The notes under the pieces were generated by a model that was not told where the DNA came from, searched no databases, and saw nothing but the letters and a program-made list of their open reading frames with translations. DNA of 64,000 bases. Origin: Alphaproteobacteria bacterium (GTDB lineage Bacteria; Pseudomonadota; Alphaproteobacteria; RF32; CAG-239). Below, one piece after another: positions 8,096 to 35,100 of the stretch; the first letter of the stretch is position 1; the number at the start of each line of letters is the position of its first letter. The stretch is from contig JAFUXF010000012.1 in the NCBI GenBank assembly GCA_017477185.1, positions 2,850 to 66,849 of the forward strand, written 5' to 3'. The translations under genes were made by a program, and so were the position numbers.

Positions 8096-8677
8096 ATGAC
8101 AAAAGCATTAGAAAAAAAATTTGCAACCTTAGACAAGTACATTCCCGAAGAATTGAAAGAAGCGGCTCTCAATAAAAATTTAGAAAATTATAAAAATATC
8201 CTTATTCCAATGAACATCAGCCATTTACCTTTTAATTTCAAGCTTAATACACGTGGCGGTTGGATTTCTCCGGACGGAACATGGTATGTCGAATCTCTAT
8301 CAGCAGATCCTGATGTCGTTTTACGCCCTAAGCTTAAGGATTCTGCAAAATACAATCACAATCTACGCATACAAGCCTTTAAGGAAGGATGGGTAAGATT
8401 GGATTGGCAACAAGCAATAAGTTCTCGAAAGTTTGAAATAAAAGAAAGTTCTTCCAGGAAATTTATTATTACGCTTGATGGTAATACAAAAATCAATTAC
8501 AAATTGTTTTTAGCTATTCAAACTATAGCTATGGTTTATACCCTTGTTCAGGCAACAAAATTTACATATGAATTAAGGCTCGTCACAAAATATGAAGATA
8601 AAAAAATAACCCATAAAGCCGAACAATCTCAGGGATTTGAATTTTTTAACATTCAGCTTAACAAGATTCGCCGTTAG
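8096..8677 (+). CDS. hypothetical protein, coupled to the ankyrin gene
   Basis: 193-aa ORF that starts 4 nt after the ankyrin stop, with AAAGGAG upstream. Confidence 0.6.
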   Translation: MTKALEKKFATLDKYIPEELKEAALNKNLENYKNILIPMNISHLPFNFKLNTRGGWISPDGTWYVESLSADPDVVLRPKLKDSAKYNHNLRIQAFKEGWVRLDWQQAISSRKFEIKESSSRKFIITLDGNTKINYKLFLAIQTIAMVYTLVQATKFTYELRLVTKYEDKKITHKAEQSQGFEFFNIQLNKIRR

Positions 8678-9624
8678 TTCGTACTTTTAGGCTTGATAAC
8701 TTTAACTTCATTGCCCCAAGTATAAAGAAACCAATCCATTTCCCATTTACCTCCGGCTTTGAATTTAACCGTTAAACTGCCATCGGGATTTTCTGTTATT
8801 GTTTGTGTAGGGTGAAATACATAATTTTTAGCTTCTTCTGCAACTTTCGGACTAAACAGCCATTCAACATCAAAAGGCTTTTCATGATAGGCTCCGAAAG
8901 ACTCTTGTGCATATTTTTCAAGGCTAAATCCGTCATCGGGAGAAACATCAGGCAATATTTCAACTTCTATAATATTTTGCAAAGAATAATTGTGTGCACG
9001 CCCCTCATCCCAATTATCGCTATGTTTTGCAACTAAATAATGGTCTCTCTGTCCATATAAAAAGCCATAAGGGATTAATTGATAATTTGAAATATGACTA
9101 TCGGATTTCTTTTTATATTTTATTTTAATTTGATGACAGCTTAAAATAGCATGCCTGATTTGATTAATAAATTCAGGATTTATTTTTATTTGCGGTGCAG
9201 GTCGTAAAACTAACCCTTCCGCTTTCATAAGCTCTTCAGCATCTACTTCTACTCTGCGTTTTTGTTCCGGTTTAAGTAAATTACGAAGTTTTGATTCTAC
9301 TATTTGTAAAATATCTGCTTTTTCATCCATTCCTTGAGATTTTAATAAATCTTCTGCCGTCTTAAAAACAGATAACTCTAAGGGAGAAAATGAAATTAAA
9401 CTGTTTAAACTGCGTTGTGATATTCGCCACCGCTTTGTCCTCTCCCCCGTATCAACTTCTTCCATTTGCGGAAAACTATCTAATAATGCAGTTTTCATAC
9501 GTTCTGCTGTTCTACGCGAAACATCAAATTCTTTTTTAATTTCTTCTATTGATATACCCTCGCTCGTTTCTTGCATTTGCAAGGCTAGCTTAAATAAGTC
9601 AATTATTTTGCCATATGTTCCCAT
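8674..9624 (-). CDS. WYL-domain transcriptional regulator (HTH-WYL-WCX architecture)
   Basis: N-terminal HTH ISIEEIKKEFDVSRRTAERM. Central WYL-like region IKYKKKSDSHISNYQLIPYGFLYGQRDHYLVA. C-terminal beta-rich extension. Confidence 0.8.
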   Translation of the reverse strand: MGTYGKIIDLFKLALQMQETSEGISIEEIKKEFDVSRRTAERMKTALLDSFPQMEEVDTGERTKRWRISQRSLNSLISFSPLELSVFKTAEDLLKSQGMDEKADILQIVESKLRNLLKPEQKRRVEVDAEELMKAEGLVLRPAPQIKINPEFINQIRHAILSCHQIKIKYKKKSDSHISNYQLIPYGFLYGQRDHYLVAKHSDNWDEGRAHNYSLQNIIEVEILPDVSPDDGFSLEKYAQESFGAYHEKPFDVEWLFSPKVAEEAKNYVFHPTQTITENPDGSLTVKFKAGGKWEMDWFLYTWGNEVKVIKPKSTN

Positions 9625-9886: not shown

Positions 9887-10828
9887 TTATTTTCCCTTTA
9901 ATTGCTTAATAACCCAATCTCCTAACTGATGAGTTGTATAATCAGTACGATATTCCCATTTTTCTTTGTCGCAAATATTTCTCAAGGCTTCTTTGGTATT
10001 ACCGAATAGATTTCCTTCATTATCAACAACCTCTATTCTACCGTTTTTATATTTACGAATAGTATAATCTTCTCCGTACTTTATTTCTCTAAATTCACCG
10101 GTTACTACCTCATTTCTTCGAGATGAAACAGGTTTAACAAAGAAAAACAGAAATGCTTTCAGTGTATGCAATAAATATTCCGGTATCGGAGCAATTTTGC
10201 AGGAACGCTCTTTTTCCATCAAGTTTTCTATCATATTTTTTATAGTCCTACAACTTGTATTGTTCTCATCGGTACTATACCATGTTATCCAAGCAGATGA
10301 ATCATACGATTGTGTTGTAAGTTTTTGATATTCTTCTAAACATTTATCGCTATCCGGCGTTAAATAAATCATTACAATTTTGCTATTATTTTCGTTCTCT
10401 TTACGAGCATTAATAACCGCCTCATATTCTTCCTGTAATTGATTAGGTGTTACGGAATTTACCTTTGTTTTATTTTCTATGCAAAATTTAAATTCTTCAC
10501 TACCATTTTCCGAGTTTTCAAACACTAATTCAAAATCAATAGCACAAGTATTTTTATCTTCTCTTGCAACATTATACTTCGTTTCTAATCGAACCTTAAT
10601 ATCTTTATTTTCATATTTAAGCTGATTCTTATCTATAATATTCTTTAAAATTTCAGATAAATTATCTTTTTTTGCTTGTGCTTGTTCTAATGATGTTAAA
10701 AACTCGCATAAAAAGACATTTCCCAAACCATGATCTTCATTAGGATTTAGCAAATATGCTAAAAATGAACTGGTATTTTCTTCGTTAACCGCCCCCTTAC
10801 CTTGGCTTAAAGCTTTAAAAATATTCAT
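9887..10828 (-). CDS. PD-(D/E)XK nuclease family protein with extra C-terminal domain
   Basis: N-terminal ENTSSFLAYLLNPNEDHGLG. Core AIDFEL...FCIENKTK...QLQEEY matches the D...E-x-K...QL-x-x-Y pattern of PDDEXK-type proteins. AGGAGA RBS present. Confidence 0.7.
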   Translation of the reverse strand: MNIFKALSQGKGAVNEENTSSFLAYLLNPNEDHGLGNVFLCEFLTSLEQAQAKKDNLSEILKNIIDKNQLKYENKDIKVRLETKYNVAREDKNTCAIDFELVFENSENGSEEFKFCIENKTKVNSVTPNQLQEEYEAVINARKENENNSKIVMIYLTPDSDKCLEEYQKLTTQSYDSSAWITWYSTDENNTSCRTIKNMIENLMEKERSCKIAPIPEYLLHTLKAFLFFFVKPVSSRRNEVVTGEFREIKYGEDYTIRKYKNGRIEVVDNEGNLFGNTKEALRNICDKEKWEYRTDYTTHQLGDWVIKQLKGK

Positions 10829-11284: not shown

Positions 11285-11884
11285 ATGGCAATAGGTAAAC
11301 AAGCAAAAGTTTTGACAGATAAGCAACAACATCTTATTTTAACGCATTTAGACAATTCTCGTTACCCTTTACGCAATAAAATTATAGTTTTGTTGAGTTT
11401 CAAAGCCGGATTAAGAGCTAAAGAAATTGCAAATTTAACATGGGAGATGGTTTGCGACTCAGCCGGAAATATTGGAAATTCTTTAAATTTAACCAATAAA
11501 GCCTGTAAAGGTCAGCATTCCGGGCGAATTATTCCTATGCATACAGAACTTAAACATTTTTTGTCGCTATATCTTAATGAAGCTAAAGAAAAAACTTATT
11601 TTGACCTAGAAAAAAATGTGATAGGAAGTGAGAGAAATAACCACGTTTCTGCTCAAATGATTGTAAATTTCTTTCAAAACCTTTATAAAACCATTGGTTT
11701 TAGCGGTTGTTCCTCACATAGCGGCAGACGAACATTTATAACTAATGCCGCTAAAATCATAGGACAAGCCGGCGGTACATTAAATGATGTGAAATTATTA
11801 GCAGGGCATTCTTCTCTTAACACTACCCAACGCTATATTGAATATAATACCGAAGCTCAAAAACGTATTATTGAGAAGATTTAG
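11285..11884 (+). CDS. small tyrosine recombinase (catalytic domain only, 199 aa)
   Basis: Carries GLRAKEI (Arg I), HSGRRTF (H-x-x-R) and GHSSLNTTQRYIE (His/Tyr nucleophile). There is no N-terminal arm or SAM-like domain. Confidence 0.85.
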   Translation: MAIGKQAKVLTDKQQHLILTHLDNSRYPLRNKIIVLLSFKAGLRAKEIANLTWEMVCDSAGNIGNSLNLTNKACKGQHSGRIIPMHTELKHFLSLYLNEAKEKTYFDLEKNVIGSERNNHVSAQMIVNFFQNLYKTIGFSGCSSHSGRRTFITNAAKIIGQAGGTLNDVKLLAGHSSLNTTQRYIEYNTEAQKRIIEKI

Positions 11885-11887
11885 AAA

Positions 11888-12628
11888 TCACTTTTTCCTA
11901 TAAATAACCGTGATTTCTTTTGTAGAACTATTATATAATCCTTCTATTCCACTTGATAAAACTATTTCAAATTTACCATCAATTTCTATATACCTATCAT
12001 GAGAATTTTTATATATAAGCTTTTTACACTTTGTTAAGCTACAACTACGCCTAATATCTGAGATACACGCTTGCTCCTCTGGACACAAGTGTTGTGTATC
12101 TTTACAAATTTCATAATAAAAAGTTATATTAGGATTATTTTTTCTTAAATCCTTAAAAAAACTTTTGGTTAATTTAGCATTCTTAGGTAAAAACATATAT
12201 CTATCACAAACAACTACCTGTTTAGCTGAAGCACATAAAGATTTAATCATTTCAATGGCATTATTTCTGTCTTCTCGAATATTAAAAAACATACTATAGT
12301 TTTTCTTCAACTTACTTTCATTTATATTTACACACGGAAAGATATCATTGTTTGTTGTTAATTTTATTTTATAATCTGTCAAATCTAACAAATCTTTCTC
12401 ACTTTTACCATCAAAATTACTAGCTAAAATCTGAGATGCAACGGAGCTATCTTCTGTAGATATTTTATCCCAATAATTGATACGTTCCAATTGAGCTTTT
12501 GTTGTTAAAAAAGTAGGCTGATAAAGGCTAAAAAATTTTTGCACTAAATAAACATCAACAGTTTTTCCTGTTTTAAAATCATAATACAATTTCAACAAAT
12601 TATCGTCTAATAAAAGAGAGTAATTCAT
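11888..12628 (-). CDS. hypothetical protein, third gene of the DUF262/ATPase operon
   Basis: Start overlaps the ATPase stop. The C-terminal HDRYIEIDGKFEIVLSSGIEGL faintly resembles PLD-like/MIT_C-type HDR-x-I...G-x-G-l motifs. That assignment is weak. Confidence 0.6.
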   Translation of the reverse strand: MNYSLLLDDNLLKLYYDFKTGKTVDVYLVQKFFSLYQPTFLTTKAQLERINYWDKISTEDSSVASQILASNFDGKSEKDLLDLTDYKIKLTTNNDIFPCVNINESKLKKNYSMFFNIREDRNNAIEMIKSLCASAKQVVVCDRYMFLPKNAKLTKSFFKDLRKNNPNITFYYEICKDTQHLCPEEQACISDIRRSCSLTKCKKLIYKNSHDRYIEIDGKFEIVLSSGIEGLYNSSTKEITVIYRKK

Positions 12629-13782
12629 TAAGACATTTCCAAAAGTTCAGTTAATGTTGAATCAAAGAAACCACTAGGAAAAGCTACTTCTTTTTTATCA
12701 CTATTTATAAATTTTCCCTTTTCATTTATCTGTAAATTAATGAAATTATCTTTCAGGCTTTTTTTATAATATATATTAACATTTTCATTTTTTATATGCT
12801 TTTTAAAAACTTCATATCGAATTTTATTTATTAAATGTTCGCTATGTGTCTCCAAAATAACTTGAACTCCATTTTCTGCAAGAAAAGAAAAAAACATTCC
12901 TAATCGTGCTTGTGCTTTAGGATGTAAATGTATTTCTGGATTTTCTATTATAACAATATTTCCTTTTTTACATAAAAGGCATAAAATTAAAATTTTAATT
13001 AAATAACTATTTCCAGCTCCGACATTAACCGGATTAATTTTTGAAATACCATCTATATCAAAACTTAATTTTGCATTTTTATCATCAATTCTTTCTGTGT
13101 TTGCGGTTATGTCAATATCTAAAATTTCTTTTAGCCACATATCCACTTGATATGACAACGTATTACTACCTTCAAATTTTACCAATTCTGGGGAGACCTC
13201 TTGTGTTTTATGTGTCTCTAAAAAACCAATTAAATATTCTCCCATTTTACCAACTTTTTTAGATGCATCAACTAATGAAATATCTTCTGGACCGAGTCTG
13301 TTAGCCGACAAATAATATAAATTGTCCTCATAGGTAAATAAATTATTTTCAAAAAAGTCTTTGTTTTTCAAAAGATTGGATATTTCATCATTTTTTACAT
13401 TTTTATTATTATTGATGTGATTTAATAAAACACCTCTTAACTCTTTAGGTAATTGTTTTAAGGCGGCTATATTATGTTGTGGTTCATTTTCTGTATTAAT
13501 TCTATAATTATATACATATTCCTTATCGCATCTTGCTGTTATTTCTATGCTCTTTTCTTCTGTGTATTTATTTCGCACATCAACAAAATTTGAAAAAAAT
13601 GAAACATAATCATCTAAATTTGGATTAGCTGTTAAAGAGTACTTGTGCGACAATAATAATATGCTCTGTAATACAGATGATTTTCCTGTTGAATTCAATC
13701 CAGTAAATATTGTTAAATTATTCAACAAAAAGGTTTCTTCTGTAATATTTTTAAAATTTTTAATTTTAAGCTCTCTTAACAT
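12628..13782 (-). CDS. AAA/ABC-type ATPase with DUF3696-like C-terminus
   Basis: N-terminal LKIKNFKNI. Walker A GLNSTGKSS. Walker B-like IVIIENPEIHLHPKAQ, then ILETHSEHLINKI. Confidence 0.85.
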   Translation of the reverse strand: MLRELKIKNFKNITEETFLLNNLTIFTGLNSTGKSSVLQSILLLSHKYSLTANPNLDDYVSFFSNFVDVRNKYTEEKSIEITARCDKEYVYNYRINTENEPQHNIAALKQLPKELRGVLLNHINNNKNVKNDEISNLLKNKDFFENNLFTYEDNLYYLSANRLGPEDISLVDASKKVGKMGEYLIGFLETHKTQEVSPELVKFEGSNTLSYQVDMWLKEILDIDITANTERIDDKNAKLSFDIDGISKINPVNVGAGNSYLIKILILCLLCKKGNIVIIENPEIHLHPKAQARLGMFFSFLAENGVQVILETHSEHLINKIRYEVFKKHIKNENVNIYYKKSLKDNFINLQINEKGKFINSDKKEVAFPSGFFDSTLTELLEMS

Positions 13783-14903
13783 TATAACAAACCTTCCAAC
13801 ATTTTTTCGACAGCTTCAAATCTATATTTAATTGCTACATTTGAATCTATAATTCTCAAAATTCCCTGTTCATCCATATCCTGTTTTAACAGGTCAATCT
13901 TCTTTTTCAATTCAATTAATCCTATTTTATCTAAATTTATATTAAAACTAAATAAATATGCCAATATCTCAAATAGTCCCATATTAATCGGACGCTTTTG
14001 CGTACCTACTTTAGATCTTTTATCGAATCTAAAACCATCCTTTCCTAAAACCTTATGACAATTTCTCATTGCTGATTCAAAGGTTTGTTCTAGTTGCTCT
14101 ACTTCTTCATCTGAAAACTTATTAATTGCCTTCATAACATTTGCTAAAAAATCATCTATATCACTTTTGTACTCAACATCTATTTTATCTGTTCTATATA
14201 AATAAAAACCTAAATATCTTAATATCATATATCGGTCTTTCATTCTTGCTGTTGGCACCCCTCCTCCTGTTGCAAGAATAAAAAGGCGAGATTTAGCTAA
14301 CCGTTTTAATAATTCAGTTGATTTACCAAGGTACAAAGCATTTCTCATTTCCTGATTATTTAATTGCGTTCCCCCTCTATTAACTCTATCAAATATGTCA
14401 AATTTAACTCTTTCTGGGGTTGGTGGCTGAACAGTATATACTGTCACTTGGTAATCTTCTATTTTAGACTGTAAAACAGGCGGCAAATCCTTAAAATAAT
14501 AAGTATTATATTCACCTAAAATATTTAAATCACTCAATTTAAATTTATTATTCATAAATTTTGTAATACATGTAAGTCTTTGTCGCCCATCTACAACTTG
14601 GCGTACTCCTTTTTCATCTTCAAAAAAATATATAATAGGAATAGGTATCCCCATTATAATAGATTCTATCAATTCAGAATTTTGCTTATGGCTCCAAACA
14701 TTTTCCCTCTGAAATTCAGGATCTATAACTATAAATATATTTTCTGTTAATTTTCTTTTTAACTCATACAAACTATATGTATCTCTACTAAATTTAATAG
14801 AAATATTAGGATAATTTGTTTTTAAATTGTTTAGTGACTTATTATCTAAAGTCTCCTCACCCTCTAGATATGAATCTGTCCTTTGAAGTATATTTTCAGC
14901 CAT
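13782..14903 (-). CDS. DUF262 (ParB/Srx-like) domain protein
   Basis: IDPEFQRENVWSHKQNSELIESIIMGIPIPIIYF...VVDGRQRL matches the DGQQR-type motif. There is no DUF1524/HNH-like C-terminal domain. Confidence 0.85.
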   Translation of the reverse strand: MAENILQRTDSYLEGEETLDNKSLNNLKTNYPNISIKFSRDTYSLYELKRKLTENIFIVIDPEFQRENVWSHKQNSELIESIIMGIPIPIIYFFEDEKGVRQVVDGRQRLTCITKFMNNKFKLSDLNILGEYNTYYFKDLPPVLQSKIEDYQVTVYTVQPPTPERVKFDIFDRVNRGGTQLNNQEMRNALYLGKSTELLKRLAKSRLFILATGGGVPTARMKDRYMILRYLGFYLYRTDKIDVEYKSDIDDFLANVMKAINKFSDEEVEQLEQTFESAMRNCHKVLGKDGFRFDKRSKVGTQKRPINMGLFEILAYLFSFNINLDKIGLIELKKKIDLLKQDMDEQGILRIIDSNVAIKYRFEAVEKMLEGLL

Positions 14904-15102
14904 GTTTCATCCTTTAATATTTTCTTATCTTATATTTTGTTAAAAATCAAGAAATTCCTTATTTTATACACTCCAACACTGTATTTACAATAGATTTAAT
15001 TAAATCTTTATGAAAATGCAAGTTCTCATTAAAAATCTAGCTTCATATTCAATATTTCCTGCTCACATTTTGTTCTAATATCATCAAGTCTCTCCAGCCA
15101 AC

Positions 15103-15136
15103 AAAAAAAGGCCTCCCTTGCGGAGGCTTTTTTTTG
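15103..15136. terminator. bidirectional intrinsic terminator
   Basis: An A7 run, then GCCTCC-cttgc-GGAGGC, then a T9 run. Confidence 0.7.
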
Positions 15137-15145
15137 TTGAATTGT

Positions 15146-15300
15146 GTGTCGCGGAAAGAACCTACCAGGTTCGGAGCGGATAGTTGGTGAAAACGAGCTT
15201 TAATAGCGAAGTTTGAACCTTACAACGCGAGGAGGACCCGCTTTAGCGGGAGTACCCAATCAGGCAGCCGGAGCCAACACAGCCCACACCATCACCACCA
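15146..15300 (+). other. GC-rich structured non-coding element, related to 553-747
   Basis: Ordered shared k-mers are GTGTCGCG, AAGAACC, GGTTCG and ATAGCGAA. Hairpins are GAACC/GGTTC and CCCGC-TTTA-GCGGG. No ORF in any frame. It lies between the restriction-gene stop and the terminator. Confidence 0.35.
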
Positions 15301-15345
15301 GTATGTGAAAGCTGAGCTTAAGGAAGATTTAGCTAAAGTCGATGA

Positions 15346-16083
15346 TTAATCCAGTACTTCATACCAATCATCATCAAAATGTAAGGCATTTAAAACAGCC
15401 TCTCTATCTAAAACATTTGGGTGTTTAATTTGTATATGTAATCGATTACAAGGAATATCTTCAATAATCGTAAATTGACTACCACTTGGTTGCCAAGTAA
15501 ATTTATGAATATTTGACTTTTTTTCATAACCTTCTAAATTCCCTCTACTATTCCAGTTAAAATAATATAATTCAGGATCATAACGAACAGTATCAAATTC
15601 GAAAATTAAAAAATCCCTATAGTCTTTTGATTTCACAAGCACAACTGTACGCACAAATTTAAATACTTGCCGGACAGCTGAGACCCTTTCATTCCATATA
15701 GAAAGGACCATTTTACCTATTTCATTTGGCTCTGAACTTGTTATTTTATCTTGTCCAAAACTAAAAGTTGGAGAATTTCTTCCTGAAATTAATCGTACCT
15801 TTTCTTGACTACATATATTAGATTGCGAAAAAACTGTTTTAGCACCCCAACAACAATTGTTGAGTATAATATCATCTAAACCTACATTTGATGGTTTCCA
15901 CTCTGCGCCTACCGCTTCTGCAAAAATTTGTTCCCATTCATTGCCTTCTAAAGACATACATTTTTTCGTTGCCAGTAAATATACAATATTCTTTGCAAAC
16001 ACATTAATAAAGTGTTTAGGAAAGCTATTTAGTAAAAAAGGTGGAATAGCTTTATTCACTGTTCTTAATTTTGGTTCTAACAT
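15346..16083 (-). CDS. putative type II restriction endonuclease, partner of the adjacent C5-methyltransferase
   Basis: 245-aa ORF 37 nt downstream of the MTase gene, with an AAGGAGG RBS. The call rests on context only; I recognised no family. Confidence 0.5.
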   Translation of the reverse strand: MLEPKLRTVNKAIPPFLLNSFPKHFINVFAKNIVYLLATKKCMSLEGNEWEQIFAEAVGAEWKPSNVGLDDIILNNCCWGAKTVFSQSNICSQEKVRLISGRNSPTFSFGQDKITSSEPNEIGKMVLSIWNERVSAVRQVFKFVRTVVLVKSKDYRDFLIFEFDTVRYDPELYYFNWNSRGNLEGYEKKSNIHKFTWQPSGSQFTIIEDIPCNRLHIQIKHPNVLDREAVLNALHFDDDWYEVLD

Positions 16084-16120: not shown

Positions 16121-17254
16121 TTAAAATGCTATAGGTAAAAAACGTTTTATTACTTCGGCAACCATGTCAACAGGTATTGCATTACCTGCTTGTTTGCGAG
16201 TTTGGCAATCAGATACTACAATTTTAAAAGTTTCTGGAAATCCTTGTAATCTAAGCATTTCTCTAGGGGTTAATCTCCTTTCTCCATTTACTAAAAGGTA
16301 ATTATAACTTGCTCCAGCCCTTAATGCACAACTATATGGATAAGAAGATATATTTCCTGATTTATTTTCGTGCCATATTGCTGGATAATATTTAGAAGTG
16401 TGCATAGCTTTTCTTTTAGAGATAATATCTTTAGATGCATAATATTTTTTATCGACAACTTTATCCAATATATCACTTAAAGTTTTTTGTTTTTCTACTT
16501 TAAAATTCCAATCCATCTTAAAAGGTTTTTTAGCCCCTAATATCAAAACTCTTTCTCTTTTTTGAGGTAGCCCAAAATCTAAAGCATTTAACAAATGATA
16601 ATCTACGTAATAACCTAATTCATCTCTTAGTACTTCTATAATAGTTCTAATAGTCTTTCCATTATTATGACTAGCTAGATTTTTAACATTTTCTAAGACA
16701 AAAGCTTGTGGTTGTTTTGCTTTTATAATACGTGCTATATCAAAAAATAATGTTCCTCTTGTCGTATCTTCGAAACCTTTTCTTAAACCACATATAGAAA
16801 ATGTTTGACAAGGAAATCCTCCAAATAATAAATCAAATGTAGGAATCTGAGAAGCTTTTATTTTTGTTATATCTCCTGCAGGTCTCTCACTAAAATTTGC
16901 TTCATATGCCTCTTGTGCATATTTATCTATATCGCTACTAAAAACACATTTTCCTTTTATATTTAACTGATCAAAAGCTTTTTGAGATGCATATCTGAAA
17001 CCACCTATTCCACAAAATAAATCTACAAAACTCATTTTTTTTGGTAAAATCTTGCCGTGATTATGTTCTATATCCATGAATAACTTATCTATACTAACAT
17101 TTAACATTTTTGATAATTTCATAGCTATTACAATAGATGGTGTTACTGTATTTTTCTCTATTTTAGAAAGATATGTACGACTGATACCTGCTATTTTAGC
17201 AAGTTCAATTTGTGTAATGTGTTTTTCTTTTCTAATTTTAGCGACATTATTCAT
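16121..17254 (-). CDS. DNA (cytosine-5) methyltransferase with N-terminal XRE-type HTH
   Basis: HTH ITQIELAKIAGISRTYLSKIE. Motif I DLFCGIGGF. Motif IV GGFPCQTFS. Motif VI ENV. Also QKRERV, and the C-terminal RRLTPREMLRLQGFP and GNAIPV. Confidence 0.92.
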   Translation of the reverse strand: MNNVAKIRKEKHITQIELAKIAGISRTYLSKIEKNTVTPSIVIAMKLSKMLNVSIDKLFMDIEHNHGKILPKKMSFVDLFCGIGGFRYASQKAFDQLNIKGKCVFSSDIDKYAQEAYEANFSERPAGDITKIKASQIPTFDLLFGGFPCQTFSICGLRKGFEDTTRGTLFFDIARIIKAKQPQAFVLENVKNLASHNNGKTIRTIIEVLRDELGYYVDYHLLNALDFGLPQKRERVLILGAKKPFKMDWNFKVEKQKTLSDILDKVVDKKYYASKDIISKRKAMHTSKYYPAIWHENKSGNISSYPYSCALRAGASYNYLLVNGERRLTPREMLRLQGFPETFKIVVSDCQTRKQAGNAIPVDMVAEVIKRFLPIAF

Positions 17255-17352: not shown

Positions 17353-17817
17353 TTATTTTCTTTCGTTTTTAATGTTTTCTCTGAAAGATGCAACCAGATC
17401 TTGAACTTGTATTACACAATCACGATCTAATCGAAACATTTGTGTTTGAAATGTCCCTCCTGTTGCTTTTGATTTAATCTCGTTAAAATCTCTAATATAG
17501 TCAACAATATCTCTATTTAGTAAGGTTTTATATTTTTTATTTATGATTGTTAAACTTGAAGAAATATTTTTCCCTTTATATGTAATTTCACTAGCTCTTA
17601 AAGTACGTTCATCTTGTGAAAGTCCCGCAACCATCCAATATTGGCGACAAAGTTCGAGATAAGTATCTATATCTTTAACTATTTCATTTAATTCATCATT
17701 GAATTTATTTAATTTTAATTGTTGTGATAATTTAATTTCTTTATACCAACTAACACCAGCAGCTGCTACTGAACTTATAGCAGAAACTACACTGACAATT
17801 GTACTAATACTACACAT
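17353..17817 (-). CDS. single-pass membrane protein (putative effector of the GHKL/STAS module)
   Basis: N-terminal TM segment SISTIVSVVSAISSVAAAGVSWY followed by ~125 aa predicted helical. AAGGAAG RBS. Overlaps the upstream gene by 8 nt. Confidence 0.6.
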   Translation of the reverse strand: MCSISTIVSVVSAISSVAAAGVSWYKEIKLSQQLKLNKFNDELNEIVKDIDTYLELCRQYWMVAGLSQDERTLRASEITYKGKNISSSLTIINKKYKTLLNRDIVDYIRDFNEIKSKATGGTFQTQMFRLDRDCVIQVQDLVASFRENIKNERK

Positions 17818-18139
17818 TTTTTGCTTCCTTTAAATATCCTTTTAGCAAAGGTATCAATGTATCGTCATCACTGCATGTAAATTCAATTTTTGCAGTCACT
17901 TCATCGTACGAAAAACCATCTTCTGTAATTAAAGAAACAAACGCTTCATCCCAAAAAGAAGAACCAACACCACATAAACCGTTAAGGTTAATAATAATTT
18001 TTTCAACATTCCTATCTCTCAGTGGTTCTACCAAAAACTCTTTTCTAAATTTTTCTCCACTATAAGGTCCGTCATTATAAAAACGCCCCGCAGGGACTTT
18101 ACTAAAGTCATTGGCTATAGATATATTTTTTATTTCCAT
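17810..18139 (-). CDS. STAS-like (DUF4325-type) small protein
   Basis: I prefer the start at MEIKNIS (AGGAGG upstream). IIINLNGLCGVGSSFWDEAF is typical of DUF4325/STAS-like partner domains. Confidence 0.6.
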   Translation of the reverse strand: MEIKNISIANDFSKVPAGRFYNDGPYSGEKFRKEFLVEPLRDRNVEKIIINLNGLCGVGSSFWDEAFVSLITEDGFSYDEVTAKIEFTCSDDDTLIPLLKGYLKEAKNV

Positions 18140-18147
18140 ATGTCCTC

Positions 18148-19161
18148 CTATTGTAAACGAACTTTCCACTGAATTAATGTACCTTTTAGAGATTCTTCTC
18201 TATTCTTTACAGATTCTGTACCTTCAGAAAGATACATATATTCTCCTCGATAACTAAATATTTTTAACATTCCTTCTATATTTGATGTAATATAATCTTT
18301 TATATCCTTCAAGCCTTTTCCTCGAGTCTTCTGTTTTGTTGATGTTCTACTTAGTTGAGTTGCAGCTTGTATCCTCTGTGCATCATCATTAAGTAACCCT
18401 CCAAAACTTTTAAAATATTCCGTATGTGTTCTAGGTAAAGAATTAGGTATTCCTATACCTTCATCATAAAACATTATTGTTAACATCTTATTTTTAATAT
18501 TTAAGGACGCAGACATCCACCATAGTCGTTTTTTTAATAAATTATTTGATAAATAATCTTCTGGATATGCGTGATTTATTGAGTTTGTCATAGCTTCTGT
18601 TAAACCTTTTTGCAGTGCTCTAGGAGAAGGTACAGAACCTTGAATTAAGGCTGATAATAAAGTTCCAAGTTTTAAAGCATCTTCACCTGAAGCTATATCT
18701 CCAGCTTGAAATGGTATATAAAAATCTTCACTATCATTTTTTTCATAATTAAATTTTGCAGGTAGATTACTGACATTTAAGAGCTCAAACATTCCCATGT
18801 CCCTAAGTTGTAATCGAATATTTCTATCCCATTTTTTAAAATCTATTACCCTCATTCTCCTAAAACACTTTATACGTTTTATCCTATCTATTTCGGCTGT
18901 AAAAGCTAATGCAGCTGCCGGAGATATTTTTTTTAATGGTTTAAAATCAATAATGAATCTTTTTTTTGTCTCCTCGCAAGCAGATCTTAATTTATTAAAA
19001 AATTTTACTGTCTCATCATAATTTTCATTAAGATTCATATTTTCTGGTGTCTTAATGTTTTCTAAGGCATACTTTCGATGTCGTTTATTTTTTTTGAAAA
19101 TAGAGCGACGTATTTTATTCAATAAATATTTTTTATGTTCTTCTGATAGTTTTTTCATCAA
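18148..19161 (-). CDS. GHKL-type ATPase (HATPase_c-like) with N-terminal STAS-like region
   Basis: N-box-like EAMTNSINHAYP. G1-like YDEGIGIP. G2-like TRGKGLKDI. The N-terminal half has IIDFKPLKKISPAAALAFTAEIDRI. Confidence 0.7.
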   Translation of the reverse strand: MMKKLSEEHKKYLLNKIRRSIFKKNKRHRKYALENIKTPENMNLNENYDETVKFFNKLRSACEETKKRFIIDFKPLKKISPAAALAFTAEIDRIKRIKCFRRMRVIDFKKWDRNIRLQLRDMGMFELLNVSNLPAKFNYEKNDSEDFYIPFQAGDIASGEDALKLGTLLSALIQGSVPSPRALQKGLTEAMTNSINHAYPEDYLSNNLLKKRLWWMSASLNIKNKMLTIMFYDEGIGIPNSLPRTHTEYFKSFGGLLNDDAQRIQAATQLSRTSTKQKTRGKGLKDIKDYITSNIEGMLKIFSYRGEYMYLSEGTESVKNREESLKGTLIQWKVRLQ

Positions 19162-19672: not shown

Positions 19673-20995
19673 TTACTCCAACTCCAACAACCACTCTAAC
19701 ACATTCAAACGTTTAATGCCTTTAGTATTGCCTGAGCCATAGTCCATAGAGAGCAAAAACTTCGGGTAATTGTCTTCGATTTCCTCTAATGGAGCTAATT
19801 CGCGTTTTAATACTTCCGGCTCCAGTGCATACAAAGCAACTTGGTAATATTCGACTTCACCAACACTTTTTTGAGCCACAAAATCAACTTCAATATTTTT
19901 ACCGCCTTTATTGATTTTACCGACAGACACTTGATAGCCACGTCGCAACAACTCTAAATATACGACATTTTCTAAAATATGCCCTTGATCCATATCTTCA
20001 TGACCAAGCAGAGCTGTACGCAAGCCAATATCAGCCACATAATATTTAGCACTATTCTCTAAAAGCTGTTTGCCTTTAATATCATAGCGGTCGCATTTAT
20101 ACATCAAATAGCTGTCGATTAAACCTTGTATATAGGTTGATATTGTCGGGACTGAAACACTAAAACCACCTGCTTTCAACCCTTTTTCAATATTTCGAAC
20201 CGACGTTTCATTGCCGATATTATCAAATAAATAACGCACCACCGCATCCAGTTTATTGGTATCACTGATTTTGAAGCGACGAACAATGTCTTTTTGAATA
20301 GTGTTGCGATATACCGTGTCCATCAAGTAGTCATTAATAAGTTGTCTATCGTATAAAAAATCTAATGTCTGAGGAAATCCACTTTTTTTAATGTAATGGG
20401 AATAAACTCCTAGCGGGTTACGAGTATCTTCCATTTCTTTAATCGTTAAAGCGTGTATAGGCGCTCTCATCGTGTAATCTGAATAATACTCTTTGAAAGA
20501 CAATGGTTGCATTTTGATTTCTACATAGCGACCGCCCAAAGTATTTGCCAAATCAGAAGAGAACATATAAGCATTAGAGCCAGTCAAATAAACATCAACA
20601 TTCTCGTGTAACCGAAGTGTATTAGCCACTCTCTGCCAATCACGCAATAATTGTATCTCATCAAGAAAGACATAATTCATTATTTGCGGTTTTAATCGTG
20701 CAACCACATAATCAAGCAGTTTGTTATAATCTGTTAAAAAGCCTTCTTTGTCATACTCTAAACCAATTTCTCTGGTTTTCATCAGGTCTTCAAGATTGAT
20801 ATTAATAATGTTGATTTTCTGTTTTTTATTATGGCTCTCAATTTCAAGATCCATTTGATAAAGTGAAAACAACTTCGATTTGCCGCACCGTCTTACGCCT
20901 GTTATGATTTTAATTAAATCCTGTTGAGACCGCCATTTTTGAAGTTGAGCGATATATGTTGGTCTTCCAATTAAATGTTCGACAGCTTTTTTCAT
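19673..20995 (-). CDS. AAA-superfamily ATPase with DUF4143-like C-terminal domain (COG1373-type)
   Basis: Walker A GVRRCGKS and Walker B VFLDEIQ. Overall architecture is typical of this family. Confidence 0.8.
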   Translation of the reverse strand: MKKAVEHLIGRPTYIAQLQKWRSQQDLIKIITGVRRCGKSKLFSLYQMDLEIESHNKKQKINIININLEDLMKTREIGLEYDKEGFLTDYNKLLDYVVARLKPQIMNYVFLDEIQLLRDWQRVANTLRLHENVDVYLTGSNAYMFSSDLANTLGGRYVEIKMQPLSFKEYYSDYTMRAPIHALTIKEMEDTRNPLGVYSHYIKKSGFPQTLDFLYDRQLINDYLMDTVYRNTIQKDIVRRFKISDTNKLDAVVRYLFDNIGNETSVRNIEKGLKAGGFSVSVPTISTYIQGLIDSYLMYKCDRYDIKGKQLLENSAKYYVADIGLRTALLGHEDMDQGHILENVVYLELLRRGYQVSVGKINKGGKNIEVDFVAQKSVGEVEYYQVALYALEPEVLKRELAPLEEIEDNYPKFLLSMDYGSGNTKGIKRLNVLEWLLELE

Positions 20996-29181: not shown

Positions 29182-32100
29182 TTAGAAATTATACTTAGCC
29201 TTTAATGAACCGGTATGGCTGGTATATCCTTGACGAAGATTTGCATTATATTCTGCAGATAGTGTCCAATCTTCAACATCGACATCAACACCAACGCCAG
29301 CTTCCAAACCAATACGATCTAATTTCTCACCAGTAACGTTATAAACATTTGTTCCGACATTAACAGTTGCATTAGAATCATCGCTTAACAGATCATAAGT
29401 CAAAGCAACTCTTGCTCTCGGTGTAAATGTATATGTTTCATTTTCCACCGTACTTGCAAAATTAATTCCTGCAACAGCTGTTAAAATATCAACATCATCA
29501 GCTCTAATACGCTGTCCAACTGTATCTGTATAATCATCACGTTTAATATGAGTATATCTTAAACCAGCTTCAGGGGTAATACCATCTTGCCAATCATAGC
29601 CGACATAAGCACTTGCCCCCATATTTTGAACATTATAATCGCCTTTATTAACAACTCCGCCAATATTGGCTTTTTCCTCATATTTAGCGATACCATACAT
29701 AGCCATAGCACGCACAAACCATTCTGACGGCTGATATTTACCATAAACATAAAAGTTATGACTTGCTATATCTGTATCGCGTCCAGCAGACTCAACATCT
29801 GTATTGCCGTAAGCATAACCGACACCGACCATTGTTTGGCTGTCTTTTTTACCATCTAAACCAAAAGCAACTCCTTTTGTATGCCCTCTAAATCCAGGCA
29901 TTTGGTCTGCTGCATGTTGTTTAGAACGGTTATATAATGTCTGCACCCATGCTCCTTGACGCTCAAATACATCTCCTGAGTTCATACCTTGCGTTTGTAA
30001 GCGATCGGCGACTTGAGCATCTACCATGTTATTAAAGTCTTGTGTGACTCCCACATGAACCAAGCTATCTGTTGGAGCTAAATCAGTTAAAGCTTTGGTA
30101 TAAGCAACAGCATCATGCTGAGATAATTCATTCAAATATTCCTGAACAACAGCTGCAGGTGTTCCTTCCGGAGCATTAAATGAATCCCAAGCTTGAGCTG
30201 CTTTAACATTATTTGTTGAACCGTTTGCCGCTTCAGTAACATCAGCGGCTGAAGATGTATAAGTAATTTTGAATTTACCATCCTCTGTTTGCGTAACCTG
30301 ATAACGATTATTAGACATCAGTTCAGCAAAATCACCTGTTTTTGTTCCGGTGACATTAATCAGGTCAAGACCTTCTGTTGATTGACCTTTTTCGGTCATT
30401 AAACCGGAAGCGACCGTTAATGCTAATTTAGAAGAACTTCCCAAGGTTAAATCATGAGCTGTTAATTTACCACCGGTATAATCACTTGAAGCATCACTAA
30501 GATTTGTAATACCCATTTTCAGTGTCCCATTAATAACCGCATCACCCAATGTAACCTGATTTGTTCCGATATCTAACGAACCATTATTGGCAATTATTGT
30601 GTTAGATGTTGTTAAATCTGCACCATCGCCCCAAATCGCATCACCAATAATGTTGGTTATACCACCATTAACAGCATTACCAATTGTTCCACCATTAATA
30701 TTATATGTGCCATTATTGGTAATAGCGACTTGAATATTATCAGCACTGGAAGTCAAAGACTTATCATTATTAATTGTGATAGCACTTGAAATAACAGCAT
30801 TATTAGCAACTGCACCCTCAACAATTAAATTACCACCACTGACTGCTTTGCCAATTGTACCACCGGTAACCTTATAAGTTCCACCGGTTACTGTGCCTGT
30901 AACATTGCTTGCATTACTTTCTAATGATTGACCATTATTAATGGTAATGTTGTTAGCTATTTGAGCATTATTTACCACATCTCCGGCAACAACTAAAGCA
31001 CCATTACCGGTTACATTCTGAGCAATTGTTCCATCGGTTACATTATATGTTCCTGAGTTAGCAACTGTTCCGCTGATATCATCTGCTGATGAAGTCAATG
31101 TTCCGGTAACAGTAACATTTTCCAGAGTTCCGTTATTGGTAACATTTCCTGAAATTTTCGTCGTACCGGCAATCGTTTTATTTAATGTACCACCAGTTAA
31201 TTCAATCGTTCCGGCATTTGTTGTAATATCATTACTAAATCCGTTTGCGGCTGTCTTTAATGTTCCACCGGAAGCAATTTCAACCATATTCGTCATCGTT
31301 GTATTGTTTTGAACAGTTCCGCTAATCTTGGTTGTACCACCTGTAATTTGTTGGGCTAATGTTCCACCGGTTAAATTAACTATACCACCATTTGTAACCG
31401 CACCGCCAATTTTATCAGCTGCCGTTGTTAATGTCTTATTTGAATTAATTGTAACTTCCTGACTGATTGTACCTGTATTAGTCATGTTATTTGCAATCAC
31501 TGTATGTCCATCACCAGTGATAGCATTTGCATTAGCTGTACCGGTTAAAGTTAAAGTGCCATCATTATCAACACCATTAGCCGTTGTCATAGAAGAAACC
31601 GTCAATCCGCTATTTTCAGCAACAGAAACAGAATCTTGTTCAACAAAATCAATAGTTGTTACGCCACCATCAACATAGAATGTTCCTTCACCTGTCAACT
31701 TATCAAGGGCATTTGTACCTGTAGCATGGACTTCTCCGGTATTAGCAATTCCTGCGTTAATGGTTGAGTCTTTAATATTAACCGTTCCGTTAGATGCAAT
31801 CACATTTGCCGTATTTTCTGCAACAACTACACCATCAAGATTAGCTTCTGCAGTACTATTGGTAATATTAATTAATGAACCGGTTTCAGTTTTTGCATTA
31901 ACAACCTCTACATTTTTCAAATTAACGGTTGTATCTGCTTTTGAAACAGCGAATCCTATCTTTCCATTCATATCCAACTCAGCCAAATCTGTTGCGCTTC
32001 TACCTTCAATAGTAATATCTCCGGCAGCTGTTGTTCCCAGATTTTGAGTTAACTGATAAGCGTTAGAAGACTCTGTTGTTGTGGCTTTCATACTTCTTGA

Positions 32101-35100
32101 ACCGCTTGTTGTATTTAAGGTTGCAAGAGCATCTGCTTGCGTTACACCAGTTTGATGCTTTGCTTCCGTTACATTAACAGCTAATTGTAATGATGTTCCA
32201 TCGACAGATAGTGTTTTTTGTTTTTTCTCGGTATACTCTATAGTATCAAAACTTAGTTTATCAAAATCAATGTCAGCAGCAAAATCTTCTGCTTCATAAG
32301 TAATATCGGTAACCTCATCGCCCTGATATGCTGCTGCTAACTCATCAGAAAGAGCCAACGTAATATTATCTGTTGCACCTTTCAGAACTTGAACAGTAAA
32401 CGAATCTGATGTTGTGCCGATTTCGGTTATATCACTAACCGTAATTGTTCTTTCTGTATCACCAGCAACGGCGATATTGATAGCATCGGCAATCGGTGTT
32501 TCCCCTGTGTAATCAATATCAATCTTAATAGAACCGTCACCAAGCAATTTATTAACAGCCTGTTCTGTAACAGCTTCATCACCAGCCAAATTCAATGTTC
32601 CGTCATTCAAATCCAATGTTCCGGCAACAGAACCGGCAGAAGTCATTACCAGAGCTTCATTAACTTTGGTAACACCCGTTGTACCGGCAACAGCCTTGCT
32701 CAATGTACCGGATAAATTCAAAGTTCCGGCATTTGTAATTGTACTGCCAAAATTAGAAGTATTTGCAGTTAACGTACCTGATGCAATGGTTACAGCCTGA
32801 TTAACAACAGAACCTGATGCGATTGACGATGTTCCCGTAAATTGCGTTGAACCATCACCTGCAACCTTACCAGTTAAAACACCACCATTGACGGTTAAAC
32901 CATTTTCTGTTGCATTGACAATACCTTCTCCTGTGCCTGTTCCTACAATGACATTACCGTTAGCTGTCAATGTTGCATCTGATTCAATATTGATAACTTT
33001 TTGTGTAATTTGACCAACAGTTGTTGCACCTGTCACAACATTAGCCGTACCGGCCGTTCCTGTAATCTTAGAAAGGCTGTTTGTTCCATCTAAGTTCAAG
33101 GTATCGGTATTATTAATATCAGCCGTTGTATTATTTACAAATGTTGAATCTTCAACATTCAATGTGCCGGCATTGTCAACTGCATAATCAGATGCACCCG
33201 AAAACTCATCAACACCGCTGATTGTCAGGGTTGAACCTTCTGCAACTTTAATACCGGTATTTGAATCACCTAATATACTGTTGCCATTACCAAAGATTGT
33301 AAAGGCGGTTCTATCAGCATTATTCAATGATCCGAAAGCTCTGTCTGCCGTGAAATCTTCTGACAATGAGTATGCTGTCGGGTGCATTGTTCCGACATTA
33401 TCAAGAATAGCGTTGATTAAATCACCATCATAATGAAGTTTTCTGCTGATAGACAGTAAACCTGTTGTTTCACTATCCGGTGTAAATGTATAGGCATATC
33501 CATCGGCAATAGTTGTATAAGCTGTCGTTCTTGTGGTTATATTGTCTTTTGCATTGCCATCTAAATACGTTGCCTCTGTATCATCAGCATATTCATCCGG
33601 TGTATTAATAACATTAATTGCATTTAATGTAATGATATTGTCTGCTTTGGTAGAAGATGAAACATTGTTAACTTTCAATTTATCCATAACATTCAATGTT
33701 GCATCATAATCTAAATTCAAATTCAATGTATTCTCATTGCCACCATAAGTCGTAACCGTCAGAACATCACCGGCATGATCGTTTTGCAAGCTTAAAGTTG
33801 CATCACCTGTTACATTCAAAGCTTGAATAGTTGATGTTGCAGGCGTTGTACCAAGTTGCAATGTACCACCGGCAAGGTTAGTTGTTCCGCTATTGTCATA
33901 AGCTCCATTTAATTCAATCGTACCATCATTATATGTTGCGTCAGAATTAATATTTAATGTGCCGGCAACGTAAATTTTATCATTAATTGTTACTTCCTTA
34001 CCTTCAGCTGCATTCAAATTAAGTACACTGCTATTATTATAACTGGTAATACCATAACCATTACCATTTGCTGTTGCATTAACATTATCCGTAAATTCAA
34101 CATCTCTATTTTTAGCAGTTATTGTTACTGTACCTCGATCATTGTATATAGCAGCACCACGGTCAGCAACATTACCGATAAATGAGGTATCGGTAAGATT
34201 AATTATCGCATCGTTTGCTTCGTTATAAATCGCGCCACCATAGTTCACAGATCCTGCTGCTTCATTTCCAATAAATGAAGAATTTGCAATATTAATGGTT
34301 CCTGAAAGATTAGAAATAGCACCACCATAAGAGGTAGATTTATTTTTAATAAAATTACCTAAAATAGAATCAATATTAGTGTTATAGTTATAAATTGCAC
34401 CACCTTGTGCATTTTGGTAGTTGCCGATAAAGTCACCTTTTATTAAACCTATTTTACCTGAACTGTAAGTAAGTATTGCACCACCACCATAGCTGCCACC
34501 CGTTCCTCGGTTACCAATGAAATCTCCTACAATTTCTCCTATCTCACCGGTTGAACTATCATGTCTCAAAACACCAGCATAGCCGGATGCAGAATTACCG
34601 ATAAAGTTACCTGTTATAGAGCCTATGTTATTAGAATTTCCTGCATTGTTAATAGCTGTACCATAAGAACCTGAATTGCCAACGAAATCAGCTGTTATAT
34701 CACCAGTCGGATTCGAAAGGACGCCGCCAGTTTTACCGACATATTCTACGCCTTCTCTTATCGTCGGTGTCAGAGCCGTATTATCGGAATTTTTAACTGT
34801 TAATTGGTTATTTGCCCAAGTATACTTCAACTCTGTATCGTCTTCACCATAAGTTGTCTTTTTAATATCGGTATAGAAAGTCTTATCTCCATAAGCAACT
34901 GGAATGATACCGGTATTTTCTTTGGTAAACTTATAAGCACTATCACTTCCAAGCGTTGGTTTCAGCCAATTTATTCTGTCAGAAAGGCTTAAAACACCGG
35001 TTGTGTTATCATAAGTTGCTGTTGCATAAATACCTGCATCAAAATCATTGGCTAATGCAAGAACACTTTTAAGTGTCCCATCAGCAATGTGGAGTTCTCC

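Follow-up and report, generated by a model that had tools for sequence, protein, structure and literature searches.

The window analyzed here is a stretch of 64,000 nucleotides (nt) from an Alphaproteobacteria bacterium (assembly GCA_017477185.1, contig JAFUXF010000012.1, positions 2,850 to 66,849), and all coordinates refer to it. Three minus-strand open reading frames (ORFs) spanning 11888-14903 very probably make up an intact Type I Menshen (NsnA-NsnB-NsnC) anti-phage operon located in a defence island, with an NsnC of the PLD/MIT_C-like sub-class "PB-PLD1." The genes, encoding a sensor candidate, an ABC-type ATPase, and an effector candidate, are listed in Table 1 with their motifs and neighbors. 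At both junctions, 13782 and 12628, the coding strand reads TAATG, with stop and ATG sharing 1 nt, which is exactly the arrangement of overlapping stop and start codons described in a first-pass annotation made from the DNA letters alone. Such TAATG overlaps are the usual mark of translational coupling, predicted here for nsnA-nsnB-nsnC. The motifs quoted in that annotation (FQRENVW, DGRQR, GLNSTGKS, IIENPEIHLHPKAQ, ETHSEH, HDRYIEID, and SSG) are likewise all present.

To identify the system, the proteins were scanned against the PADLOC-DB hidden Markov models (HMMs) with hmmscan, and against Pfam and NCBIfam. Gene 1 matches PADLOC NsnA (E=7.4e-109; residues 14-371 against profile positions 25-381 of 385), gene 2 matches NsnB (E=7.9e-89; residues 1-382 against 1-341 of 345), and gene 3 matches NsnC (E=4.8e-50; residues 1-245 against 1-240 of 242). 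The next-best PADLOC systems are far weaker, namely PD-T4-2_A for gene 1 (1.3e-37) and HEC-03B for gene 2 (2.3e-29). With E-values of 1e-50 to 1e-109 and a gene order kept in dozens of genomes, the assignment is far beyond chance. As all three proteins match one described system over their full length, the locus is already known, which bears out the suspicion of the first-pass annotation that this might be the Menshen/NsnABC type and settles its question of known versus novel in favor of the former. Indeed, the system, its three-gene layout, and the PLD-like effector flavor are already in the literature and in the PADLOC models. Pfam sees only generic domains and NCBIfam has no specific model for the NsnA, NsnB, or NsnC of this locus, so that in ordinary annotation the locus looks anonymous.

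Menshen has been described from 1997 loci by Li, Tan, Basu, Corbett, and Zhang (Nucleic Acids Research [NAR] 2025, PMC12065111). In that account, NsnA consists of a ParB-DUF262 domain and a DNA-binding "ParBDB" domain, and Type I systems, which lack an extra N-terminal sensor, comprise 77% of loci. NsnB is an ABC ATPase in which Walker B reads "EN," arginine substitutes for the Q-loop glutamine, the signature is GxG, and a helical DUF3696 tail follows. NsnC joins an N-terminal "inactive PIN" (inPIN) to one of 15 C-terminal effector families, and the PB-PLD1 class among these resembles MIT_C (2YMB), NucT (6EHI), and Tdp1, with an Asp or Glu after β2 and an HDR motif before β5. Menshen is also often linked to methylase-nuclease pairs (PMC12065111).

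NsnA of the locus has a single Pfam match, GmrSD_N/DUF262 (E=2.5e-25, residues 53-192), and the Pfam scan gave no DUF1524 or HNH match at E≤0.1, in agreement with the original view of gene 1 as a DUF262 protein lacking that nuclease half. Motif I is QRENVW (residues 65-70, within FQRENVW at 64-70), motif II is DGRQR (residues 105-109), and motif III is FDRVN (residues 171-175). The C-terminal ~180 aa correspond to the published ParBDB domain, on the basis of the NsnA profile alignment that extends to residue 371 of 373. As only ~50 residues precede DUF262 and there is no extra N-terminal domain, the system is assigned to Type I. The nucleotide-binding motifs of both NsnA and NsnB are intact.

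NsnB matches Pfam AAA_15 and AAA_21. It carries a Walker A motif, GLNSTGKS (residues 28-35), an arginine (R162) replacing the Q-loop glutamine, a GAG signature (G255-x-G257), a Walker B motif, IIENPEIHLHPKAQ, with E280-N281 in place of D-E, and an H-loop, ETHSEH (residues 311-316), with H313. In a 19-sequence NsnB alignment, G28-K34, R162, G255/G257, E280-N281, and H313 are invariant. The C-terminal tail, FPSGFFD, may correspond to DUF3696, and F368-P369-x-G371-F372-F373 is invariant among relatives. No Toprim match was found with Pfam; the Old and GajA profiles align with ATPase segments only. An Asn/Lys-rich insertion of ~40 aa at residues ~100-140 is common only to the four closest relatives, which come from gut/rumen metagenomes, and is absent from typical NsnB proteins of 335-350 aa.

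The first-pass annotation found no clear family for gene 3. This holds for Pfam, which has no match to the whole of NsnC, and fails for PADLOC, where the match is full length. A word-index search with NsnC over 5.8 billion proteins recovered only NsnC itself, since 5-mer seeds cannot bridge the divergence within the family. When 1.84 billion cluster representatives were searched exhaustively with HMMER, 188 relatives emerged at E≤1e-3, nearly all full length at 230-260 aa, the closest being 41% identical. NsnC relatives occur on 19 plasmids (Campylobacter and Klebsiella), and none were found in the phage genomes of the collection. In an alignment of 110 family sequences, H210, D211, R212, Y213, and G227 are invariant, and D142 (109/110), S226 (107/110), R121 (105/110), and P98 (104/110) nearly so, with D217 conserved at 79%. 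The conserved C-terminal motifs are HDRYIEID (residues 210-217) and SSG (residues 225-227). The spacing H210-x-R212-(x)4-D217 is that of a PLD "HKD" half-site with Arg for Lys, present as one motif per chain; the canonical HxK(x)4D(x)6GSxN is replaced by HxR(x)4D with an S-G 8 residues farther on. Judged by its residues, the putative site is a variant PLD half-site in which the spacing is kept, rather than a canonical HKD.

A structure of NsnC was predicted with AlphaFold2 from the family alignment (pLDDT 93.7, pTM 0.85). In the model, D142 closes the strand at 137-141 and HDR lies just before the strand at 212-216. Foldseek against the PDB gives MITD1 MIT_C as the best match (4a5z_A, E=3.4e-6, TM 0.64 on the target; 2ymb, 1.1e-5), followed in order by NucT (6ehi, 1.3e-5), PLD3, FAM83/BJ-TSA-9, Zucchini, Salmonella Nuc (1byr), and Tdp1 (~1e-3). 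When the family profile was searched against all PDB sequences, MITD1 was the only match (E=0.013), with the Asp (D142), HDR, and Gly (G227) superposed, while a single-sequence NsnC search against the same sequences gave noise only. As modeled, the C-terminal domain has a PLD-like fold bearing an invariant D142 / H210-D211-R212-Y213 / S226-G227 cluster. The faint PLD/MIT_C likeness noticed at the outset is thereby seen in the model, in Foldseek, and in the MITD1 profile match. The accompanying concern that the third gene might be unlike what had been published can be set aside, as PB-PLD1 has the same acidic residue, the same HDR, and the same MIT_C, NucT, and Tdp1 neighbors (PMC12065111). The N-terminal module of ~105 aa is mostly helical with short strands, is predicted with similar confidence when residues 1-108 are modeled alone (pLDDT 92.2), and has D9 as its only conserved acidic residue.

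To establish how widely the three genes travel together, we examined the surroundings of relatives (designated by L numbers). Five divergent NsnC relatives show the order DUF262 / AAA_15-21 / NsnC-like wherever enough upstream DNA is assembled, and the same triad occurs in loci of Deefgea, metagenomes, rumen metagenome-assembled genomes (MAGs), and a conjugative Campylobacter plasmid, as well as beside the most similar NsnB proteins, which are 55-57% identical and stem from rumen and other gut metagenomes. A synteny scan was then performed on one genome per GTDB species, a set that does not include the host species, with the NsnB alignment as query and downstream ORFs scored by an HMM built from the NsnC alignment. 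It yielded 80 loci from Pseudomonadota, Bacteroidota, Campylobacterota, Desulfobacterota, Melainabacteria, and others. This NsnC family begins no more than a few bases from the nsnB stop codon in 68 of the 80, with an exact HDRY in 65 of those 68, so the third gene, whose conservation with the first two had been left as the point to check, is kept across phyla. Most of the other loci, which have the most distant NsnB, encode a different downstream protein of ~285-299 aa (L080, L083, L084, L088, L093-L095, and L097, with 120 aa in L097); the remaining loci show no ORF downstream within the DNA covered and are hence uninformative. The downstream proteins of L088, L093-L095, and L097 share the C-terminal pattern KFR.S.K.R..GYR...F.V..F...H..SD.G. 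Such apparently swapped downstream proteins fit the published effector shuffling.

Fourteen metagenome contigs encode the same NsnC, and its neighbors are also identical wherever they are assembled. The nearest distinct locus (L016) is 78% identical in NsnA, 55% in NsnB, and 39% in NsnC, and in NsnC the divergence is spread evenly over the two halves. Among named genomes, the nearest is a MAG from water-buffalo rumen, also designated Alphaproteobacteria bacterium, whose NsnB is 57% identical. In this MAG (L015 5893-7004, the same contig region as L018), nsnA is split into ORFs of 184 and 186 aa and nsnB and nsnC are intact; the split is either a pseudogenized sensor or an assembly frameshift.

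Upstream of nsnA, the operon appears to have its own boundary. A Shine-Dalgarno-like AAGGA lies 6 nt 5' of the nsnA ATG, in front of which is an untranslated region expected to hold the promoter. The -35/-10-like sites in it (14990-14961 and 14943-14916) are consensus matches only, and the promoter scan was not enriched over shuffled sequence. Beyond this region, a 41-nt palindrome with an 18-bp stem, 7 G-C pairs, and T-runs on both strands forms a bidirectional intrinsic-terminator hairpin, and as it stands between the upstream restriction-modification genes and nsnA, nsnABC looks like a separate transcription unit. Three independent Logan contigs (L004, L005, and L006) stop ~230-240 bp 5' of nsnA, inside the palindrome; most simply, these ends are assembly breaks at the hairpin and not biological junctions. 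Between the terminator and the stop of the next ORF lies a 206-nt spacer of 50% G+C in surroundings of 26-31%, which was seen solely in copies of the present locus (L001-L003). The spacer has no Rfam match at the gathering threshold, and none at E≤1 except terminator look-alikes, and its folding z-score is only -2.1, mostly from the terminator. An invertible promoter or recombinase-flanked cassette was also considered and rejected, as a repeat search gave only weak A+T-rich inverted pairs besides the terminator palindrome, and the recombinase is unlinked to Menshen in all other loci examined.

Table 1. Features of the Menshen locus and its surroundings, in window coordinates.
Feature	Position	Strand	Size or residues	Description
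HTH-WYL-WCX regulator	8674-9624	-		Island member
PDDEXK_4 (PD-(D/E)XK) nuclease	9887-10828	-		Partial PDC-S26 match, 1.4e-14
Tyrosine recombinase	11285-11884	+	199 aa	Catalytic domain only; Pfam Phage_integrase 5.6e-17
nsnC	11888-12628	-	246 aa	Effector candidate
NsnC C-terminal domain	~11891-12304	-		PLD/MIT_C-like
NsnC S226-G227	11948-11956	-		Conserved pair
NsnC HDRYIEID	11978-12001	-	210-217	Variant half-site, putative
NsnC D142	within 12197-12217	-	142	Conserved Asp
NsnC N-terminal module	12305-12628	-	~105 aa	Mostly helical
nsnB	12628-13782	-	384 aa	ABC-type ATPase
NsnB FPSGFFD	12664-12681	-		C-terminal tail
NsnB ETHSEH	12835-12852	-	311-316	H-loop
NsnB VIIEN	12940-12954	-		Walker B
NsnB GAG	13006-13020	-	255-257	Signature
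NsnB R162	13297-13308	-	162	Q-loop position
NsnB insertion	13363-13485	-	~100-140	Clade specific
NsnB GLNSTGKS	13678-13701	-	28-35	Walker A
nsnA	13782-14903	-	373 aa	Sensor candidate
NsnA C-terminal region	13785-14327	-	~180 aa	ParBDB
NsnA DUF262	14328-14747	-	53-192	Pfam GmrSD_N/DUF262
NsnA FDRVN	14379-14393	-	171-175	Motif III
NsnA DGRQR	14577-14591	-	105-109	Motif II
NsnA QRENVW	14694-14711	-	65-70	Motif I
Upstream untranslated region	14904-15098	-		Expected site of the operon's own promoter
Intrinsic-terminator hairpin	15099-15139	both	41 nt	Bidirectional; inverted-repeat search and terminator scan on both strands
Spacer	15140-15345		206 nt	50% G+C
245-aa ORF	15346-16083	-	245 aa	No Pfam or PADLOC match
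HTH_3-fused C5 cytosine methylase	16121-17254	-	377 aa	PADLOC MTase_II 2.4e-105
Three co-directional genes	17353-19161	-	337, 119, and 154 aa	Weak HATPase_c; DUF4325 (STAS-like); no family
AAA_14/DUF4143 ATPase	19673-20995	-		PADLOC candidate PDC-S01 2.4e-128, full length
Giant ORF	29182-40332	-	3716 aa	

The surroundings are rich in defence-related genes. Behind the terminator, the C5 cytosine methylase and the 245-aa ORF probably constitute a type II restriction-modification pair whose nuclease is unclassified, and such neighbors fit the published linkage of Menshen to methylase-nuclease pairs. Farther upstream, the 337-aa gene overlaps the 119-aa gene in a group of three, none of which matches PADLOC; given the island context, these could be an uncharacterized defence module. 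On the other side, the tyrosine recombinase converges on nsnC with 3 nt between the stop codons, and in one metagenome copy (L002) it is split into ORFs of 88 and 111 aa. Elsewhere in the window is the giant 3716-aa ORF, with counterparts of 3277-3325 aa on related MAG contigs; these similar ORFs lie near the Menshen loci there and have a weak bactofilin match.

How the three proteins work together can be proposed from the published model and from related ABC-ATPase systems, which by analogy make a sensor-transducer-effector chain likely. NsnA, as a ParB-like NTP- and DNA-binding protein, would sense incoming phage DNA. In the published prediction, NsnB forms a GajA-like tetramer in which each NsnC is gripped by its N-terminal module between a pair of C-terminal tails (PMC12065111). 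DNA-bound NsnA would then switch the ATP cycle of NsnB, whose predicted tetramer would clamp the NsnC module between these tails, and ATP binding or hydrolysis would release or remodel NsnC. The freed PLD-like phosphodiesterase would cut nucleic acid, with the phage destroyed or the infection aborted. To this model we add a switch of our own. One-motif PLD nucleases such as Nuc, NucT, and Zucchini are active only as dimers. As NsnC has a single half-site and such nucleases act in pairs, separation of NsnC monomers on NsnB may be the off-state, and release followed by dimerization, which would build the active site, the on-switch.

The target is a separate matter. The published model favors RNA, as most NsnC effectors are RNases; the PLD relatives of NsnC found here are mostly DNA or single-stranded DNA (ssDNA)/RNA phosphodiesterases. 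PLD-type Menshen may accordingly depart from the RNA-centered model, in a scheme that we put forward tentatively and regard as possible yet doubtful: the N-terminal module would be no PIN relic but a domain, peculiar to this family, that docks onto the NsnB tails, and NsnC would be a one-motif HxR(x)4D phosphodiesterase, inactive as an NsnB-held monomer and cutting DNA after release and homodimerization. The MIT_C domain is reported at the C terminus of many BrxL proteins, and if docking and dimer gating hold for NsnC, the MIT_C domains of BrxL, and perhaps that of MITD1, would be catalytic too.

Several points weigh against reading the locus as an intact PLD-type Menshen operon with a nuclease effector. 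Two domain labels fall below their Pfam cut-offs: the last 120 aa of NsnC match MIT_C only at E=0.023 (15 bits against a cut-off of 25), and the NsnB tail matches DUF3696 at E=0.22 (12.2 bits against 22, spanning profile positions 1-51 of 52). Of the early description of gene 2 as a DUF3696-type ABC ATPase, the ATPase part stands, by AAA_15/AAA_21 and PADLOC NsnB, and the DUF3696 part is sub-threshold. The NsnC N-terminal module has no PIN match and no significant Foldseek match in the PDB (best E=1.1), so the published inPIN label is not confirmed for this NsnC family, and the module would be inactive if PIN derived; a 2026 preprint disputes the "inactive" reading for another NsnC class. AlphaFold 3 predicted no NsnA contact with NsnB or NsnC (PMC12065111), and the chain from sensor to effector is a bioinformatic model only. 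Anti-phage activity was found for the Solibacillus silvestris Menshen, as Millman et al. 2022 are cited in PMC12065111, where a homologous system is said to protect against T2, T4, T6, and Fado; the validated system carries a BECR RNase-type NsnC and not a PLD type. A literature search found no experiment on this locus or on any PLD-type Menshen and no paper resolving the Menshen mechanism. In a 2025 preprint, Menshen is one of 16 nuclease-NTPase systems assayed for phage defence, and the mass photometry there gave higher-order complexes of a stoichiometry that was not resolvable.

With these points in mind, we consider it improbable that the operon is Menshen with a PLD-like domain that is not a nuclease and instead binds membranes, hydrolyzes phospholipid with cell killing or arrest, or acts as a noncatalytic adaptor. 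MITD1 MIT_C, the best structural match of NsnC and its only sequence-profile match, is a membrane-binding PLD fold (Hadders et al. 2012, as cited in PMC12065111), and NsnC has arginine where the HKD motif has its canonical lysine. Still, invariance of H-D-R-Y, with D142 and S-G, across 110 divergent NsnC sequences points to a catalytic or ligand pocket rather than a surface patch, the next structural neighbors are the one-motif PLD nucleases NucT, Nuc, Zucchini, and PLD3, and 12 of the 15 NsnC C-terminal families are predicted nucleases in the same position (PMC12065111). Less probable still is that nsnABC is a selfish addiction or maintenance module, in which a ParB-like protein, an ATPase, and a toxin stabilize their mobile element and phage are not the primary object. 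Relatives lie beside RepL and toxin-antitoxin genes on conjugative Campylobacter plasmids, and in rumen MAGs they have resolvases and DUF3768 close by; in the window, nsnC is adjoined by a tyrosine recombinase gene, and the operon has 26-29% G+C, below the window mean of 35%. Residence on mobile elements, however, is normal for defence systems, the recombinase is not kept beside Menshen in other loci, the locus sits among restriction-modification and other defence genes, and homologous Menshen is anti-phage in the account cited above. Hardly credible is another DUF262 system (GmrSD/SspE/BrxU type IV, PD-T4-2, or Dazbog) or an OLD/Gabija/PARIS/Septu-type pair; the secondary PADLOC matches to PD-T4-2_A for gene 1, and to AriA, Old, GajA, and PtuA for gene 2 (1e-22 to 1e-11), are partial and fall short of those to the Nsn models by 60-70 orders of magnitude, there is no DUF1524/HNH or Toprim domain, and PADLOC matches the third gene to NsnC over its full length.

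Type I Menshen is the reading we retain. Its value as a discovery is small, since a standard defence finder would annotate the locus. The remaining value of the locus lies in its being a divergent PLD-type Menshen, intact and compact, whose NsnC shares no more than 41% identity with any other cluster and which forms a terminator-bounded unit in a poorly sampled rumen lineage. It could serve for a first experiment on a PLD-type Menshen effector and on catalysis at the HDR site.

Compared to known systems, NsnA has in common with GmrSD, SspE, and BrxU a DUF262 ParB-like NTPase domain (QRxxxW, DGxQR, and FxxxN) and a helical DNA-binding region. In contrast to these proteins, it lacks a fused DUF1524 HNH, and the nuclease role is proposed to lie on a separate, ATPase-gated protein. 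Septu (PtuAB), PARIS (AriAB), and Gabija (GajAB) likewise pair an OLD-type ABC ATPase with a small nuclease effector, and the predicted placement of NsnC between two NsnB tails resembles the way PtuB and AriB are held by their ATPases. Menshen differs from them in adding a ParB-like sensor gene and in its effector fold, with no Toprim or HNH, and the PADLOC matches to these systems are partial and weak. Whereas the OLD/GajA class has a Toprim domain, NsnB is a protein of 384 aa without one.

For the effector, the one-motif PLD nucleases (Nuc, NucT, Zucchini/PLD6, and the BfiI catalytic domain) have the same fold (Foldseek probability 1.0, E of 1e-5 to 4e-4) and, like the NsnC C terminus, a single H-x-basic-(x)4-D half-site in a single domain of ~140-160 aa. 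NsnC departs from them in its arginine, in an S-G 8 residues after the Asp where they have GSxN, and in being fused to a regulatory N-terminal module under proposed ATPase control. The eukaryotic protein MITD1 associates with ESCRT-III and binds membranes, and it is not known to be catalytic. Its MIT_C domain aligns with NsnC at the acidic residue, HDR, and Gly, and the two differ in that identity is only ~13-15% and that MITD1 binds membranes.

The closest resemblance is to the published Menshen itself. The locus has the A-B-C order, the gene coupling, and the adjacent methylase-nuclease pair of Type I PB-PLD1 systems. Its NsnA is a ParB-DUF262 protein with a C-terminal DNA-binding region and no extra N-terminal sensor, as published, and its NsnB shares with published NsnB the Walker B EN, the GxG, the R for Q, and the presence of a conserved C-terminal tail. 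NsnC is likewise a two-module protein with a C-terminal D/HDR site and MIT_C, NucT, and Tdp1 as structural neighbors, its class being assigned by the published description. From other Menshen systems the locus differs in sequence only, with nearest relatives at 78% (NsnA), 55-57% (NsnB), and 39-41% (NsnC) identity, and from typical NsnB proteins in its clade-specific insertion of ~40 aa.

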